Assembly: GCA_014297435.1 (NCBI GenBank)
Contig: JACOQA010000004.1
Coordinates: forward strand, 1-64,000
Reading direction: 5' to 3'
DNA length: 64,000 nucleotides
Source of the DNA: Candidatus Nanohaloarchaea archaeon
GTDB lineage: Archaea > Nanohalarchaeota > Nanosalinia > Nanosalinales > Nanosalinaceae
The notes under the pieces are model-generated. The model was not told the origin of the DNA, ran no database searches, and saw only the letters and a program-made list of their open reading frames with translations. The position numbers and the translations under genes are program-made. How positions within the stretch are numbered: position 1 is the stretch's first letter; each line of letters starts with the position of its first letter. Of this stretch, positions 28,066-52,691 are shown piece by piece.

Positions 28066-29130
28066 ATGGAATCCATAATAAACAATTCAGAATCCGGAAA
28101 AGACACCGAAAACCTCGACGACGTAAAGGATGCTAGAATCCTGGTAGTCGGTGCAGGAGGAGCCGGAAACAACCAGGTAACACGAATACAGAAAAAAGAC
28201 GTACAAGGAGCAGACACAGTAGCAATCAACACAGACAAACAACACTTAGAAATGTCCTCCGCCGACAGAAAAATCCTCGTAGGTCGCGACCTAACAAAAG
28301 GACTCGGCGCAGGAGGACAACCCGAAAAAGGAGCAAGAGCAGCAGAAGAAAACCGCGCAGAACTCCGCAGCCTGTTCAAAGACGCAGACATGGTCTTCCT
28401 AACCGCAGGTATGGGAGGAGGAACAGGAACAGGAGTGACACCAGTCCTCGCAGAAATAGCAAAGAAGGAAGATTGTATTGTTATCGGAACAGTAACCATG
28501 CCTTTCGAAATTGAAGGCGCAAGAATGTCAAAAGCCGAAGAAGGACTATACAGGTTGAGAAAACACGTTGACACTGCAATCGTAATCGAAAACGACAAAC
28601 TACTTGATATTGCGGGCGACATGCCTCTCGATCAAGCCTTCGGTGTCGCGGACGAGCTGATCACCACCATGATAAAAGGCGTAACAGAAACAATCTCGAA
28701 ACCTTCACTCGTAAACCTAGACTACGCAGACGTCCAAGCAATCATGAACGAAGGAGGAGTCGCAGTCGTAGGATACGGAGAATCAGACACAAACAACAAA
28801 GGAGAAGAAGCAATCCATGAAGCACTCTCCAACCCACTACTCGATGTAGAGTTTGATGGAGCAAACGGAGCACTCATGCACGTAGCAGGAGGAACCGACC
28901 TCACACTCAACGAGATCAACGACGTAGGTCAGACAGTCAAAGAAAGACTTGATTCAAGAGCTCAGGTAATCTGGGGTGCAAGAGTCAAGGAAGAACTTGA
29001 GGGCAAGATCCAAGTGATCTCGATCATCACAGGGGTAGAATCACCTTATGTACTTGGAGAGGTCGATGAGCAGCAGGAATCAGAAGTAAAAGGCGATGTC
29101 AACGACCTAGGACTGGAGGTTATCGAGTAA
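28066..29130 (+). CDS. ftsZ: Cell division protein FtsZ (FtsZ2-like)
   Basis: GGAGNN, AINTDKQHL, GMGGGTGTG tubulin signature, NLDYAD, C-terminal GLEVIE. Confidence 0.97.
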   Translation: MESIINNSESGKDTENLDDVKDARILVVGAGGAGNNQVTRIQKKDVQGADTVAINTDKQHLEMSSADRKILVGRDLTKGLGAGGQPEKGARAAEENRAELRSLFKDADMVFLTAGMGGGTGTGVTPVLAEIAKKEDCIVIGTVTMPFEIEGARMSKAEEGLYRLRKHVDTAIVIENDKLLDIAGDMPLDQAFGVADELITTMIKGVTETISKPSLVNLDYADVQAIMNEGGVAVVGYGESDTNNKGEEAIHEALSNPLLDVEFDGANGALMHVAGGTDLTLNEINDVGQTVKERLDSRAQVIWGARVKEELEGKIQVISIITGVESPYVLGEVDEQQESEVKGDVNDLGLEVIE

Positions 29131-29907: not shown

Positions 29908-30414
29908 ATGAAGGCTCCAATTTGTAACGTATGCTTGAAGAGTTCTGACGAGCTCTGCAGCATGTGCGAAGACAAGCTAGAAGACGGTGATATCACCGAG
30001 ACTGATATCAAAATCACCAGAATACTGTACGACCTTTCGAAGGAATACTCCTCTCTCAAGGATTCAGAGATCGTTAAGGTATTTGAGATGGAGAAAGTTA
30101 TAGTTATAGTTACTGCGGAAGGTGACGGCGCAAAAGTCGTCGGAAGAAGCGGCGAAATTGTGAAAGAAGTTGCTTCTGAAGTAGATAAATCCATTCGAGT
30201 TGTCGAAAAGGCTGAAGACGACATGGACACAATCAAAGGACTTCTAAGTCCTGCAGAAGTAGAGTCGATCAACACAGTCTTCATGCCTGAAGGAAAGTCG
30301 AAGAAGATCGTTGTCGACGACGAGTACACCGGCAAGATCAACCTATCGGTCGAGGAGTTCGAGGAGATTATCAAGGAAATCACCGACACGCCTTACAAGC
30401 TGTCGTTCGAATAA
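29908..30414 (+). CDS. Archaeal NusA-like KH-domain protein with Zn knuckle
   Basis: MKAPICNVC...LCSMC; VVGRSGEIVKEV KH GxxG. Confidence 0.85.
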   Translation: MKAPICNVCLKSSDELCSMCEDKLEDGDITETDIKITRILYDLSKEYSSLKDSEIVKVFEMEKVIVIVTAEGDGAKVVGRSGEIVKEVASEVDKSIRVVEKAEDDMDTIKGLLSPAEVESINTVFMPEGKSKKIVVDDEYTGKINLSVEEFEEIIKEITDTPYKLSFE

Positions 30415-30479: not shown

Positions 30480-32276
30480 ATGTCGACAGGGAAAAACTCG
30501 AAGAAGTTTATCGTAACTATAGATCAGGAGAAGATCGAACCAGACCTAGCCCGAGAGACAGTAATCAAGTACGACCCGTTAAACCGTTCTGGACAGGAAG
30601 GCGGCTTCTATATTGATGAGAATGAGGAGCTTCATATCGATAATGAGAAAGTTATGGAAGCTCATAAGATGGCGATTAACCGGTATCCTTACGAGAACGC
30701 GATCCAGATGATCCAGCTTCCTTTTGAGGAAGGAGAGAAAGTCCACCAGTTCCATGACAACAGTTTCCGGCTTTACGGTCTTCCTGTACCTGAGAACGGA
30801 AGAGTTACCGGAATAATAGGTAAAAACGGCATAGGAAAGTCAGTCTCATTGAATATTCTTTCCGGCGAACTAAAACCTAACCTCGGTAATTTCGAAAAAC
30901 CCCCTGAGTGGGACGAGATAGTGAAAGAATATCGTGGAACCGGCCTACAGACTCATTTCGAAGAGCTATCAAGCGAAGGGATAGAATCAGCTTTCAAACC
31001 TCAACAGGTTGAAAGACTGCCTCAAGCATATGAGGGAAAGGTCAGAGAGCTGCTTGAAGGTGTCGACGAAAAAGATAGTTTAGAGGAAATTGCGGAGGAG
31101 GTCGATATTGATCATCTTCTTGATCGTGAACTTAAGCAGCTATCTGGCGGAGAGCTTCAGAGAGTTGCTATCGCATCCACCTTACTGAAGGATGCTGAAC
31201 TTTACATGTTCGACGAACCTAGCTCATTCCTCGATGTAAAGCAGCGTCTAAAGACAGGAAGAAAAATTAGAGAGATTGGCGAAAAACAGGAAAATACAGT
31301 TCTGGCTGTTGAACACGATCTTGCAACCTTAGATTTAATCTCTGATAACATCCATATCTTCTACGGAGAACAAGCAAGCTACGGAATGGTCTCGAAAGCC
31401 CTTTCTACAAGAGAAGGTATTAACAACTATCTTGACGGTTATCTTCCTGCTTCAAACGTACGTTTCCGTTCGAACTCGATAAAGTTTGACAGAACCAAGC
31501 GATCTCAGGTCGAAAAGAAACCTGTAGTCCTGAGCTTCGACGAAATGGCAAAGGACTTTGGTGAGGGAGAGTTTGAACTTGAAATCGAATCCGGAAAGGT
31601 ACACGAGGAAGAAGTGCTTGCAATATTTGGCGAAAACGGTTTAGGTAAGACAGTGTTTGCAAAGATGTTGGCAGGAGCTATCGAAACAGATGAAGGAGAA
31701 TCACCAGATATCTCGATCTCCTACAAACCACAGTACCTCGAGGCTGAGAACGAGACAGTCAAGGAAGCTATCTCGAACTATGTCAATCCGGAGAACAAGA
31801 AGTTTGAAAACCGTATTGCTGAGCCTCTAAACTTGGAAGATCTCTACGAAAACAACCTAGAAGAGCTTTCGGGAGGAGAGCTTCAGAAAGTAGGGATCGC
31901 TATCTGTCTTTCAAGAGATGCAGAGGTCTATCTACTTGACGAACCTTCTGCTTACTTGGATGTTGAATCCAGGGTTGAGCTTGGAAAGATGTTGAAGCGT
32001 TTCGCTAGGAAGGAGGGGAAACCTCTGATGATCATCGATCACGATCTTATGATGCTTGACTATGTTGCGGATAGAGGCATGGTGTTCAAAGGAGAACCAG
32101 GTAAAGGTGGAGAAGGTTCTAAGCCTATGAGTATCGGTAAAGCGATGGACTCTTTCTTGGAAGAAGTTGATATTACTTTCAGAAAGGATCCGGATTCGGG
32201 ACGTTTGAGAGCGAATAAACCTGGAAGCCAGAAGGATCAGGATCAGAGAAGTTCTGGAGAATACTACGAAAAGTAA
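30480..32276 (+). CDS. rli: Ribosome recycling ATPase ABCE1/RLI with Cys-free N-terminal domain
   Basis: FRLYGLP, two ABC domains (GKNGIGKS, LSGGELQ, DEPS), KPQ, GINNYLDGYLP, ITFRKDP..GRLRANKPGSQKD. Confidence 0.96.
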   Translation: MSTGKNSKKFIVTIDQEKIEPDLARETVIKYDPLNRSGQEGGFYIDENEELHIDNEKVMEAHKMAINRYPYENAIQMIQLPFEEGEKVHQFHDNSFRLYGLPVPENGRVTGIIGKNGIGKSVSLNILSGELKPNLGNFEKPPEWDEIVKEYRGTGLQTHFEELSSEGIESAFKPQQVERLPQAYEGKVRELLEGVDEKDSLEEIAEEVDIDHLLDRELKQLSGGELQRVAIASTLLKDAELYMFDEPSSFLDVKQRLKTGRKIREIGEKQENTVLAVEHDLATLDLISDNIHIFYGEQASYGMVSKALSTREGINNYLDGYLPASNVRFRSNSIKFDRTKRSQVEKKPVVLSFDEMAKDFGEGEFELEIESGKVHEEEVLAIFGENGLGKTVFAKMLAGAIETDEGESPDISISYKPQYLEAENETVKEAISNYVNPENKKFENRIAEPLNLEDLYENNLEELSGGELQKVGIAICLSRDAEVYLLDEPSAYLDVESRVELGKMLKRFARKEGKPLMIIDHDLMMLDYVADRGMVFKGEPGKGGEGSKPMSIGKAMDSFLEEVDITFRKDPDSGRLRANKPGSQKDQDQRSSGEYYEK

Positions 32277-51440: not shown

Positions 51441-52691
51441 ATGACCGACCCAAATCAGAACGACGAGGACGTAGGAATGAACAAATACCAGTTGAAGAAA
51501 CTGGTTAACAAGCTTGACGATATAAGAGGTAGAAATACCGAGCTTGTTTCTCTATACATACCGGCAGGTTATGACATGTCCAAGATTTCTGAGTTCATTA
51601 CCTCAGAACAGTCTGAGGCCGAGAATATCAAGTCTAAACATACTAGAACTAATGTCCAAGATGCGCTGGGCAAGATAGGAAGAAAGGTTCAGGAAGAACA
51701 TACTACACCTGAAAACGGTGTTGCTTTCTTTGCTGGAAACGTTTCGGATACACAGGGAAGACCTGAAATTAATATATGGGAGGTAGTTCCCCCACAGCCT
51801 ATCGAGTCCCGACACTATCGATGTGACAAAGAGTTTGTTCTTGAACCTCTAAAGCAGATGATCGTAGACGATTCAGTCTACGGACTTATCGTATGTGACA
51901 AGAACGAGGCTGCAATAGGATATCTTCAAGGTAATTCGATCAAGACAGCGTACACGCTTGATTCTGAAGTTCCTGGCAAAACACGTGCCGGAGGACAGTC
52001 AGCACAGAGATTCGCACGATTAAGAAAAGAGATGCTTAAATCTTTCTTAGGCGAGATCGCGGACAAATCACAGACTGCTTTCCTCGATAAAGCCAGAGAA
52101 GACAAACTTCTCGGCATAATCGTTGGAGGACCCGGATTCGTGAAAGATAAACTTCTAGATGATGACTACCTTCACCAAGAACTACAGGAAAAAGTTATTA
52201 CAAGAGAGAGTCTTGGACACTCCGGCGAGGGCGCCCTGAAAGAACTAGTTAACAGGGCTGAAGAATCTATTGAAGATTCACAAGCCGTTCTGGAGAAGCA
52301 GGAAGTTCAGCGATTTTTCAAGAACCTGAAAGAGGAGAACGGAAAAAGCGAGTACGGTCTTGAGCCAGTTATGAAGGCTTTGAAGATGGGTGCTGTTGAT
52401 ACCGTTTTGATCTCGGAAGACTACGATATGTTTGAAGCTAAGTACGAATGTGATAACGACCATGAGAAGACTGTTTTCGAGAAGGAAGCCGAGATAGATG
52501 ATTCAGTCGAATGCAGCGAATGCGGTGAAGAAATGGTTTTAGAGGAGATTTCTGATATAATTGATGTTGTTGCAGAGAAAGCAGAGGAAATGGGTTCAGA
52601 GCTTGAGATCATTTCCACCGATCACGAGGAAGGACAGCGATTAATGAATATGGGCGGAATCGCGGCAGTTCTAAGGTATAGAATCAGGTAA
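51441..52691 (+). CDS. prf1: Peptide chain release factor aRF1
   Basis: TELVSLYIP, NIKS, YRCD, GGQSAQRF, GGIAAVLRY. Confidence 0.97.
   Translation: MTDPNQNDEDVGMNKYQLKKLVNKLDDIRGRNTELVSLYIPAGYDMSKISEFITSEQSEAENIKSKHTRTNVQDALGKIGRKVQEEHTTPENGVAFFAGNVSDTQGRPEINIWEVVPPQPIESRHYRCDKEFVLEPLKQMIVDDSVYGLIVCDKNEAAIGYLQGNSIKTAYTLDSEVPGKTRAGGQSAQRFARLRKEMLKSFLGEIADKSQTAFLDKAREDKLLGIIVGGPGFVKDKLLDDDYLHQELQEKVITRESLGHSGEGALKELVNRAEESIEDSQAVLEKQEVQRFFKNLKEENGKSEYGLEPVMKALKMGAVDTVLISEDYDMFEAKYECDNDHEKTVFEKEAEIDDSVECSECGEEMVLEEISDIIDVVAEKAEEMGSELEIISTDHEEGQRLMNMGGIAAVLRYRIR

Follow-up and report, generated by a model that had tools for sequence, protein, structure and literature searches.

Results

A full-length ABCE1 without ligand cysteines

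The window, a stretch of 64,000 nucleotides from a Candidatus Nanohaloarchaea archaeon (contig C10:1-64000 of genome G000), encodes at 30480..32276 on the + strand an ABCE1/RLI protein of 598 aa (plus stop) in which all eight cysteines that ligate the iron–sulfur (Fe-S) clusters have been replaced. The open reading frame (ORF) is a genuine full-length ABCE1 orthologue and the sole copy in the genome. It scores 711.5 bits with NF009945, the RLI equivalog profile of NCBIfam, whose curated cut-off is 469; the match runs from residue 11 to 597 and takes in profile positions 4-589 of 592, and residues 9-596 align by HMMER with residues 19-605 of Pyrococcus abyssi 3bk7_A (E 1.8e-164). Pfam assigns two ABC_tran domains to the protein; PF04068 (Fer4_RLI) and PF00037 are absent from the 18 Pfam families found at E<=1.

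The first nucleotide-binding domain (NBD1; motifs at 30819..31319, +) carries the Walker A sequence GKNGIGKS (114-121), LSGGE (221), DEPS (245) and VEHD (277), and the second (NBD2; 31629..32045, +) carries GENGLGKT (384-391), LSGGE (463), DEPS (487) and IDHD (519). Walker A, LSGGE, Walker B (DEPS) and H-loop are thus intact in both NBDs, in agreement with the preliminary description of this DNA, which had called both ABC domains intact; the hinge is intact as well. The predicted model also has the architecture specific to ABCE1, with a helix-loop-helix (HLH) insertion, hinge regions and an N-terminal domain packed on NBD1. The lever arm that links this domain to NBD1 (residues 82-113; 30723..30818, +) is modelled with strands at 87-90 and 97-99, and H89, Q90, F91, N94, F96, R97, L98, Y99 and P102 are invariant or near-invariant alignment columns.

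The N-terminal domain itself (residues 1-81; 30480..30722, +) is predicted to be a cluster-free, ferredoxin-like unit of beta-alpha-beta-beta-alpha-beta order. Its former first Cys motif (C-x4-C-x3-C-x3-CP; 30534..30575, +) now reads I19...A24...V28...D32-P33, and the former second motif (C-x2-C-x2-C-x3-CP; 30654..30686, +) reads M59..H62..A65...Y69-P70. Numbering the ligands C1 to C8, the replacements are C1 to I19, C2 to A24, C3 to V28, C4 to D32, C5 to M59, C6 to H62, C7 to A65 and C8 to Y69, a register on which the HMMER alignment to 3bk7_A and a MAFFT alignment to the 8-Cys relative from genome G001 agree. Both alignments confirm the earlier claim that every ligand Cys had been replaced (0 of 8 kept); the scaffold peptides quoted with that claim are exact, and its span corresponds to residues 1-81.

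No Cys occurs in residues 1-113, that is, before the first Walker A, and the only one in the whole protein is residue 476 in NBD2. A stop in the same frame precedes the ATG by one codon, so that an N-terminal extension bearing Cys is not possible. No cluster-binding motif of the CxxCxxCxxxCP type is present, and with none of the eight ligands left the protein cannot hold two [4Fe-4S] clusters.

The only ABCE1 of a genome that encodes Fe-S assembly

Genome G000 (998,768 bp in 15 contigs, rated 99% complete) encodes an acidic (D+E ~18%), Cys-poor (0.71%) proteome. A single locus scores above the ABCE1 cut-off; the runner-up, at 103.6 bits, is an ordinary single-NBD ABC ATPase. A PF04068 profile search of the genome, aimed at a stand-alone Fe-S domain of the RLI type, gave no match at E<=10; the 1209 overlap-filtered candidate ORFs are free of CxxCxxCxxxC motifs like those of ferredoxins, and six-frame motif scans returned merely Cys-rich junk frames. 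In these profile and motif scans neither a trans-acting stand-alone Fe-S domain nor the second, Cys-containing ABCE1 that the preliminary description had raised as a caveat was found.

The genome nevertheless encodes Fe-S assembly, which the same description had supposed it might lack. SufB and SufD (PF01458, 297 and 211 bits), SufS (PF00266, 450 bits) and SufU/NifU_N (77 bits) lie together on contig C1 at ~204.8-208.9 kb, and an ABC ATPase adjoins them. Pfam identifies client families as well: Elp3 (ELP3_N, Radical_SAM, Radical_SAM_C), a helicase of the XPD/Rad3 type (DEAD_2, HBB), a TtuA-like PP-loop enzyme, a PAPS-reductase-domain protein and a 2Fe-2S ferredoxin. These families are known to use Fe-S clusters. 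The list is a minimum, as the survey took in 110 of the 199 ORFs of 90-1250 aa with at least 4 Cys, the other 89 and four giant ORFs lying outside it.

Constraint and predicted fold of the N-terminal domain

In an alignment of 76 Cys-free sequences, some of them at 42-50% identity, Q16, D32, P33, L34, R36, G42, F43, L51, I53, V58, M59 and H62 are invariant. The residues at the former ligand positions are nearly as constant: I in 73 sequences, A in 74, V in 75 and D in all 76 at C1-C4, and M in 76, H in 76, A in 74 and Y in 75 at C5-C8, so that I19, A24, V28, A65 and Y69 are each at least 96% conserved. Mean column identity is 77% over residues 8-112 (48 sequences) vs. 72% over the whole protein (76-sequence alignment).

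The Cys-free domain is under strong purifying selection. The ratio of nonsynonymous to synonymous substitution rates (dN/dS, Nei-Gojobori) was computable over residues 10-82 for 8 of 10 close genome pairs, the other two being saturated, and ranges from 0 to 0.078; over residues 86-596 it is 0.031-0.123 (7 pairs computable). As dS is high (0.8-1.8), these values are rough.

An AlphaFold2 model of the full-length protein, built from the Cys-free alignment, has a mean predicted local distance difference test score (pLDDT) of 85.9 and the beta-alpha-beta-beta-alpha-beta order at its N-terminus. With VIA-align, it superposes over model residues 7-598 on ribosome-bound mammalian ABCE1 (3jag_jj; Z 49.7, root-mean-square deviation (rmsd) 3.3 A, 557 residues), and 569 residues align to 3bk7; ABC proteins outside the ABCE family reach Z <= 27.6. 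A second model was built for residues 8-112 only, from 48 Cys-free sequences, and its first 70 residues reach pLDDT 85-96. Its Foldseek matches in the PDB are ABCE1 chains at ranks 1-13; next come the small ferredoxins 1siz_A (TMt 0.71, with rmsd 2.4 A across 77 columns) and 1vjw (TMt 0.69). The models thus predict that the domain keeps the ferredoxin-like beta-alpha-beta-beta-alpha-beta fold, and here structure prediction and the Foldseek matches bear out the initial impression that the ABCE1 scaffold had been retained without Cys.

Distribution of the Cys-free form

Of the best 120 of 8000 scored homologues, 118 lack Cys ahead of the first Walker A and the other two have a single one there, and precomputed Pfam annotation places PF04068 in none of the 120. 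The closest named homologues belong to Candidatus Nanosalina, Nanohalobium constans, Nanohalococcus occultus and Nanohaloarchaea archaeon. A Cys-free state so general in the clade is neither chance nor an assembly error.

We sampled the phylum with 70 species-representative genomes, all of one order, in families labelled f1 to f5. ABCE1 is matched at E<=1e-50 in 55 of them (52 above the cut-off), and 49 of the 51 with a complete N-terminus have no Cys in residues 10-82. One exception, G036 of f1, has 5 Cys, keeping C1, C2, C3, C7 and C8 with D at C4, T at C5 and H at C6. The other, G001, the sole f2 genome, keeps all 8 ligands (9 Cys in residues 10-82). Its gene (C11:87530-89248, in a locus of 32% GC) encodes the only 8-Cys ABCE1 among the phylum representatives; a NifU_N gene lies at C13:95585-95968. 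Both f1 and f5 are Cys-free and share D, M and H at C4-C6. They differ at the five other positions, C1, C2, C3, C7 and C8 being I, A, V, A and Y in f1 and V, V, A, I and I in f5.

An exhaustive HMMER search of 50%-identity representatives found 417 proteins at E<=1e-30. Fragment rows whose window falls in NBD1 were left out. Among the best 150 of the 417, those with a true N-terminus include just four of the Cys-free type, namely P0114, P0121 and P0132, without any Cys, and P0123, whose one Cys is at C7; nearly all the remaining representatives have 8-11 Cys. The same 150 include P0225, which keeps exactly C1, C2, C3 and C8, and P0150, with the reciprocal set (C4-C7 kept, C1-C3 and C8 lost). 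P0124, also among the 150, has 7 of 8 ligands, with Thr at C5. A divergent ABCE group (P0163, P0181, P0182, P0199, P0212 and P0221) has 5-8 Cys in another spacing (e.g., '...CGxxCI...ACxxCxxxxxxCP'); these proteins are possibly paralogues that form a family of their own, in which the metal site has been remodelled.

The preliminary description had proposed mapping Cys loss against the SUF genes, and across the phylum the correlation is the opposite of the one it implied. SufBD (PF01458) is present in 47 of 49 genomes of f1, the family of G000 (plus G000 itself), and in 6 of 8 f5 genomes, the two misses being 69-73% complete. It was found in 1 of 10 genomes of f4, where ABCE1 is lacking, and in neither the f2 genome, which has 8-Cys ABCE1, an IscU/NifU-type scaffold (151.6 bits) and three radical-SAM matches, nor the single f3 genome (61% complete), which gave no ABCE1 match. 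Cys-free ABCE1 thus goes with SUF, the oxygen-tolerant Fe-S assembly system; with a single f2 genome, this is a pattern rather than a test.

A class with half of the ligands, and its place in the tree

A protein database search with the N-terminal 90 residues of G036 gave 25 proteins, 24 of which (the query included) have D at C4 and H at C6. In 23 of those 24, C1, C2, C3 and C8 are kept, P0271 having Ser at C2, and C7 is Cys in 14 and Ser in 10; the ligand states are CCCDTHCC, CCCDTHSC and similar ones. When 185,579 GTDB species genomes were scanned for the shared loop with a degenerate DNA motif, 26 loci matched, and 25 of these have the pattern, which we call one-cluster. They carry the labels Candidatus Woesearchaeota (12), Nanoarchaeota / Nanoarchaeia (4), 'uncultured Methanosarcinales' bins (5), Nanobdellati (1), 'archaeon' (1), an 'Acidobacteriota' bin (1) and Nanohaloarchaea (1); the members of the class are loci L129-L153 and proteins P0270-P0293. 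The protein in the window has the D32 and H62 of this class but I, A, V and Y where the class keeps C1, C2, C3 and C8. By the rule for ferredoxin-type domains, each cluster takes three Cys of one motif and the 'CP' Cys of the other, and the complementary natural sets {C1, C2, C3, C8} and {C4-C7} fit this rule; for ABCE1, the Cys-to-cluster assignment reportedly goes back to Barthelme 2007.

Trees were quick maximum likelihood (ML) estimates with support from the Shimodaira-Hasegawa-like approximate likelihood ratio test only. The proteins of f1 and f5 form one clade with P0121, P0123 and P0132 (100), with 8-Cys G001 as its sister (89). G036 is nested in f1 in one tree (89, drawn open), sister to the other f1 proteins in another (98), and in a basal polytomy when only the NBDs are used; an approximately unbiased (AU) test did not reject a Cys-free f1 clade that excludes G036 (p 0.395).

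Second copies in haloarchaea and a family without ABCE1 matches

The 26th motif locus, L128, is in a record labelled Halorubrum amylolyticum that has a canonical ABCE1 (941 bits, 9 Cys) together with a Cys-free copy (687 bits). In a sample of the same family, canonical ABCE1 is present in 61 of 61 genomes and an additional Cys-free copy in 3 (L155/L170 at G070:C15:21871-23616, L168 at G082:C2:109200-110948, L169 at G107:C4:132243-133601). These copies are 58-60% identical to f5 proteins, one being truncated to 506 aa, and both full-length ones group with f5 and P0132 in the quick ML tree (99). The contigs that carry them measure 55, 337 and 360 kb, and the GC content around the copies is 55-61%, vs. 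68% at the canonical locus. Their neighbours are of haloarchaeal type: subunits of 2-oxoacid:ferredoxin oxidoreductase (POR), a Fer2_3/Fer4_8 protein, a universal stress protein (Usp), DUF2249 proteins, an HTH_10 regulator, a second class-I tRNA synthetase of the Trp/Tyr type and a ferritin/rubrerythrin-like protein. The pattern of identity and grouping suggests gene exchange between nanohaloarchaea and the haloarchaeal host group, and a stress-backup role of the Cys-free copy is possible.

Family f4 gave no ABCE1 match at E<=1e-50 in any of its 10 genomes (G003-G012; completeness 80-93%, one assembled into 8 contigs). For five of these, the top match of the ABCE1 profile is at most 94 bits and covers one NBD only, and a protein-based search of five (four of the same and G007) gave at most 53 bits. 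Genes of the eRF1 family, of aRF1 and Pelota size, are present in 9 of the 10. Family f4 is possibly an archaeal lineage without ABCE1, and recycling independent of ABCE1 therefore seems possible in the phylum. The genus labelled g28 is rich in radical-SAM genes and has IscU. As a separate observation, the eRF1-domain matches at G006:C3, G007:C10 and G008:C5 fall in frames of ~941-944 aa, in two distant pieces, which suggests an intein or a large insertion in f4 aRF1.

Other genes of the window and genome

The expected ABCE1 partner aRF1, with eRF1 domains 1-3 (PF03463, PF03464, PF03465, by Pfam), is encoded in the window at 51441..52691 (+), and a second gene with an eRF1_2 domain, which is Pelota-like, at G000:C8:203268-203579. 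Just upstream of ABCE1 lie an FtsZ-like gene (28066-29130, +; GGGTGTG motif, recognized by eye in the translation) and a gene for a 168-aa protein with an N-terminal CxxC...CxxC pair (29908-30414, +). Outside the window, the genome encodes an archaeal helicase with an intein (Intein_splicing and LAGLIDADG_3; G000:C13:2009-5659) and a 903-aa ATP-dependent DNA ligase with a LAGLIDADG_3 insertion (G000:C10:106102-108813).

Discussion

The ABCE1 of this archaeon is a real, conserved, functional-looking variant of a well-known protein without its hallmark cofactor sites. We consider it probable that it is the organism's single, working ABCE1, with a cluster-free N-terminal wedge in place of the Fe-S domain; it would bind no metal and retain splitting activity. 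The larger residues at the former ligand positions probably fill the space of both cubanes, I19, A24, V28, A65 and Y69 at one ligand set and D32, M59 and H62 at the other, where the invariant D32/H62 pair probably acts as a staple. The domain would thereby keep its ferredoxin-like outline, its lever arm and the basic residues on its surface (R36, K/R68), and with them its canonical use, which is to push on aRF1/aPelota and then, after ATP-driven NBD closure, to dock beside uS12/h44. Passages of one paper describe the Fe-S domain as a small lever-arm module that turns through ~160 degrees when the NBDs close and comes to dock between uS12 and h44, and report that the Lys just before the last Cys of ABCE1 cross-links to uS12 (PMC5105147). 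In the nanohaloarchaeal protein R68 stands just before the last ligand position, where the near-invariant residue of the clade is Lys. We therefore read the domain as the same wedge with a protein core replacing the cubanes.

The weakest part of this explanation is the driver. A likely candidate is that, in oxic and iron-poor brines, cells escaped from a cofactor that is labile to oxygen and costly in iron, a view that we would hold at slightly under even weight. The cluster losses of Halobacteriales, for which iron scarcity or oxidative stress has been proposed, are a precedent (PMC5861453). In yeast, according to the parts consulted of one study, the Rli1 clusters are ROS-labile and a target of reactive oxygen species (ROS; PMC3442406).

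For the path, the loss was likely stepwise, through a one-cluster stage in which C1, C2, C3 and C8 were kept while C4 became D and C6 became H. This stage would still be visible in G036 and in archaea of the Woesearchaeota type. The second cluster would then have been lost separately in f1 and f5, whose replacement residues differ. A one-cluster ancestor of f1 and f5 followed by two independent losses is the simplest reading, and transfer of the N-terminal domain is a possible source of the one-cluster form.

Several points weigh against this account. In the full-length model the N-terminal domain itself is predicted with moderate confidence (pLDDT block means 58-74), and the Foldseek matches of the domain-only model reach no more than modest values, the best with E 5.5e-4, TMq 0.61 and an rmsd of 6.6 A that is high because the lever arm is included. 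The deep branches of the ABCE1 trees are weak. The one-cluster proteins of the Woesearchaeota type do not group with the nanohaloarchaeal clade in the quick ML tree, so that two origins of the one-cluster state, or its spread by recombination, are possible. At its N-terminus G036 shares 63% identity with P0225 and 39-46% with f1; in the NBDs, its identity to f1 is 66-75%. From this identity pattern and its nested position in one tree, G036 may be a recombinant. The assignment of C1, C2, C3 and C8 to one ABCE1 cluster and of C4-C7 to the other is one that we presume from ferredoxin topology. Haloarchaea of the same brines keep 8-Cys ABCE1 (61 of 61 genomes), so that oxygen or scarce iron alone does not force the loss. 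Finally, the invariance of D32, M59 and H62 could mean a mononuclear metal site instead of a metal-free staple.

Such a metal site is one rival, in which the domain would have been re-metallated and would hold a mononuclear Fe, Zn or similar ion through D32 and H62 (with M59 or E60). All 76 Cys-free sequences have D32, M59 and H62, the one-cluster form has D at C4 and H at C6 without exception (24 of 24 proteins, 25 of 25 loci), and about half of the one-cluster forms retain a Cys at C7 that could complete an Asp/His/Cys triad. However, C7 is Ser in 10 of the 24 one-cluster proteins and Ala in 74 of the 76 Cys-free ones, and C5 varies (T, M, S, L, N, Q), leaving no constant set of three or four ligands. 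The other former site is wholly aliphatic or aromatic (I, A, V, Y), and an Asp-His hydrogen bond accounts for the invariance equally well. We regard a metal site of this kind as improbable.

Decay of the system is less probable still, and would require that ABCE1 no longer splits ribosomes and that another factor recycles them, the domain being vestigial or the protein keeping only some other role, for example in initiation or biogenesis. Family f4, with no ABCE1 found in 10 genomes and aRF1/Pelota genes in 9, lends this some weight. Against it stand a Cys-free domain conserved at least as well as the NBDs (77% vs. 72%; dN/dS 0-0.078), an intact lever arm, hinge and full set of eight ATPase motifs, and a model that superposes on ribosome-bound ABCE1 over residues 7-598. 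That the Cys were lost since a reduced symbiont could not make Fe-S clusters, the cause first proposed, agrees with the small genome, the low Cys content and the lack of CxxCxxCxxxC motifs, but we reject it as scarcely credible given the SUF genes, the adjoining ABC ATPase, the Elp3, XPD-type, TtuA-like and 2Fe-2S clients and the SufBD genes of most f1 and f5 genomes.

A cluster-free wedge in a working ABCE1 thus remains our preferred explanation, and it bears on an old question. What the two diamagnetic ABCE1 clusters do has been asked since their discovery, the options being structure, redox or oxygen sensing, and regulation. As the Cys-free protein is the only copy in the genome, it forms a natural test case for this role, and the suggestion to that effect in the preliminary description holds, the sole ABCE1 being Cys-free with its scaffold kept. 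The clade with such a sole copy includes Ca. Nanohalobium constans, Ca. Nanohalococcus occultus and Ca. Nanosalina, and strong selection acts on the protein in cells whose other enzymes are still supplied with Fe-S clusters. The one-cluster forms make up a graded series from two-cluster to cluster-free, and haloarchaea with both ABCE1 isoforms offer a genetically tractable setting. The case also bears on how cells escape from ROS-sensitive cofactors in translation.

Joining these lines, we put forward tentatively, as a reading that is possible and rather less than even, that the clusters are unneeded for splitting; that most of the phylum recycles ribosomes with a metal-free wedge reached via a one-cluster intermediate; that some haloarchaeal hosts acquired the cluster-free isoform as a backup proof against oxidation and iron starvation; and that one sister family has dispensed with ABCE1. 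If true, the ABCE1-less sister family implies an unknown archaeal recycling route.

Comparison with known systems

ABCE1 is often named as a main reason why Fe-S biogenesis is indispensable in eukaryotes, and we know of no case in which its clusters are dispensable. No description of a Cys-free or one-cluster ABCE1 was found in the open-access papers and bioRxiv texts searched; the only paper among them to mention ABCE1 along with Nanohaloarchae*/DPANN does so, in the passages seen, in a list of taxa (PMC6514570). Reviews, in the excerpts seen, call the clusters a conserved, essential feature (PMC6088178, PMC5105147, PMC8153317), and passages in two of them ascribe ABCE1/Rli1 to every archaeon and eukaryote and call its eight Cys for cluster binding essential (PMC6088178, PMC5105147).

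The nanohaloarchaeal protein resembles canonical ABCE1/Rli1 (P. abyssi 3BK7, S. solfataricus 5LW7/6TMF, mammalian 3JAG) in being an NF009945 orthologue with twin NBDs, HLH, hinges and lever arm, in its 46-48% identity to Pyrococcus ABCE1 by structural alignment, in the predicted N-terminal fold and in the aRF1 and Pelota encoded alongside it. It differs in having 0 of 8 ligand Cys and no PF04068 match, where the canonical protein holds two diamagnetic [4Fe-4S] clusters. Common to it and to the one-cluster ABCE1 of the Woesearchaeota/Nanoarchaeota type are D at C4, H at C6 and the 'YDP(I/L)NRSG..GF' loop; the one-cluster protein keeps C1, C2, C3 and C8, a full set for one cluster, with or without C7, whereas the nanohaloarchaeal one keeps none.

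ABCE1 without its full cluster complement is also known from the laboratory, as Fe-S-domain deletions (1YQT, 3OZX, 5YV5) and yeast Rli1 C58A. The portions at hand of the yeast study report that the Fe-S domain is dispensable for Rli1-mediated ATP turnover and that C58A, with a [3Fe-4S] cluster, supports viability, the other ligand Cys being mostly essential (PMC3442406). In those artificial constructs the domain or one ligand is missing, whereas the nanohaloarchaeal protein retains the domain, has other residues at all eight ligand positions and is a natural sole copy.

A natural parallel in kind comes from Halobacteriales, in which, according to passages of one paper, TFE-beta and RNAP subunit D have lost their structural [4Fe-4S] clusters, with iron scarcity or oxidative stress proposed as the reason (PMC5861453). 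As in ABCE1, a structural, non-redox cluster was lost in hypersaline archaea, the domain and its interactions were kept, and other Fe-S proteins, XPD among them, still have their clusters. The protein and the machinery are different, however, and the haloarchaea themselves keep the clusters of ABCE1.

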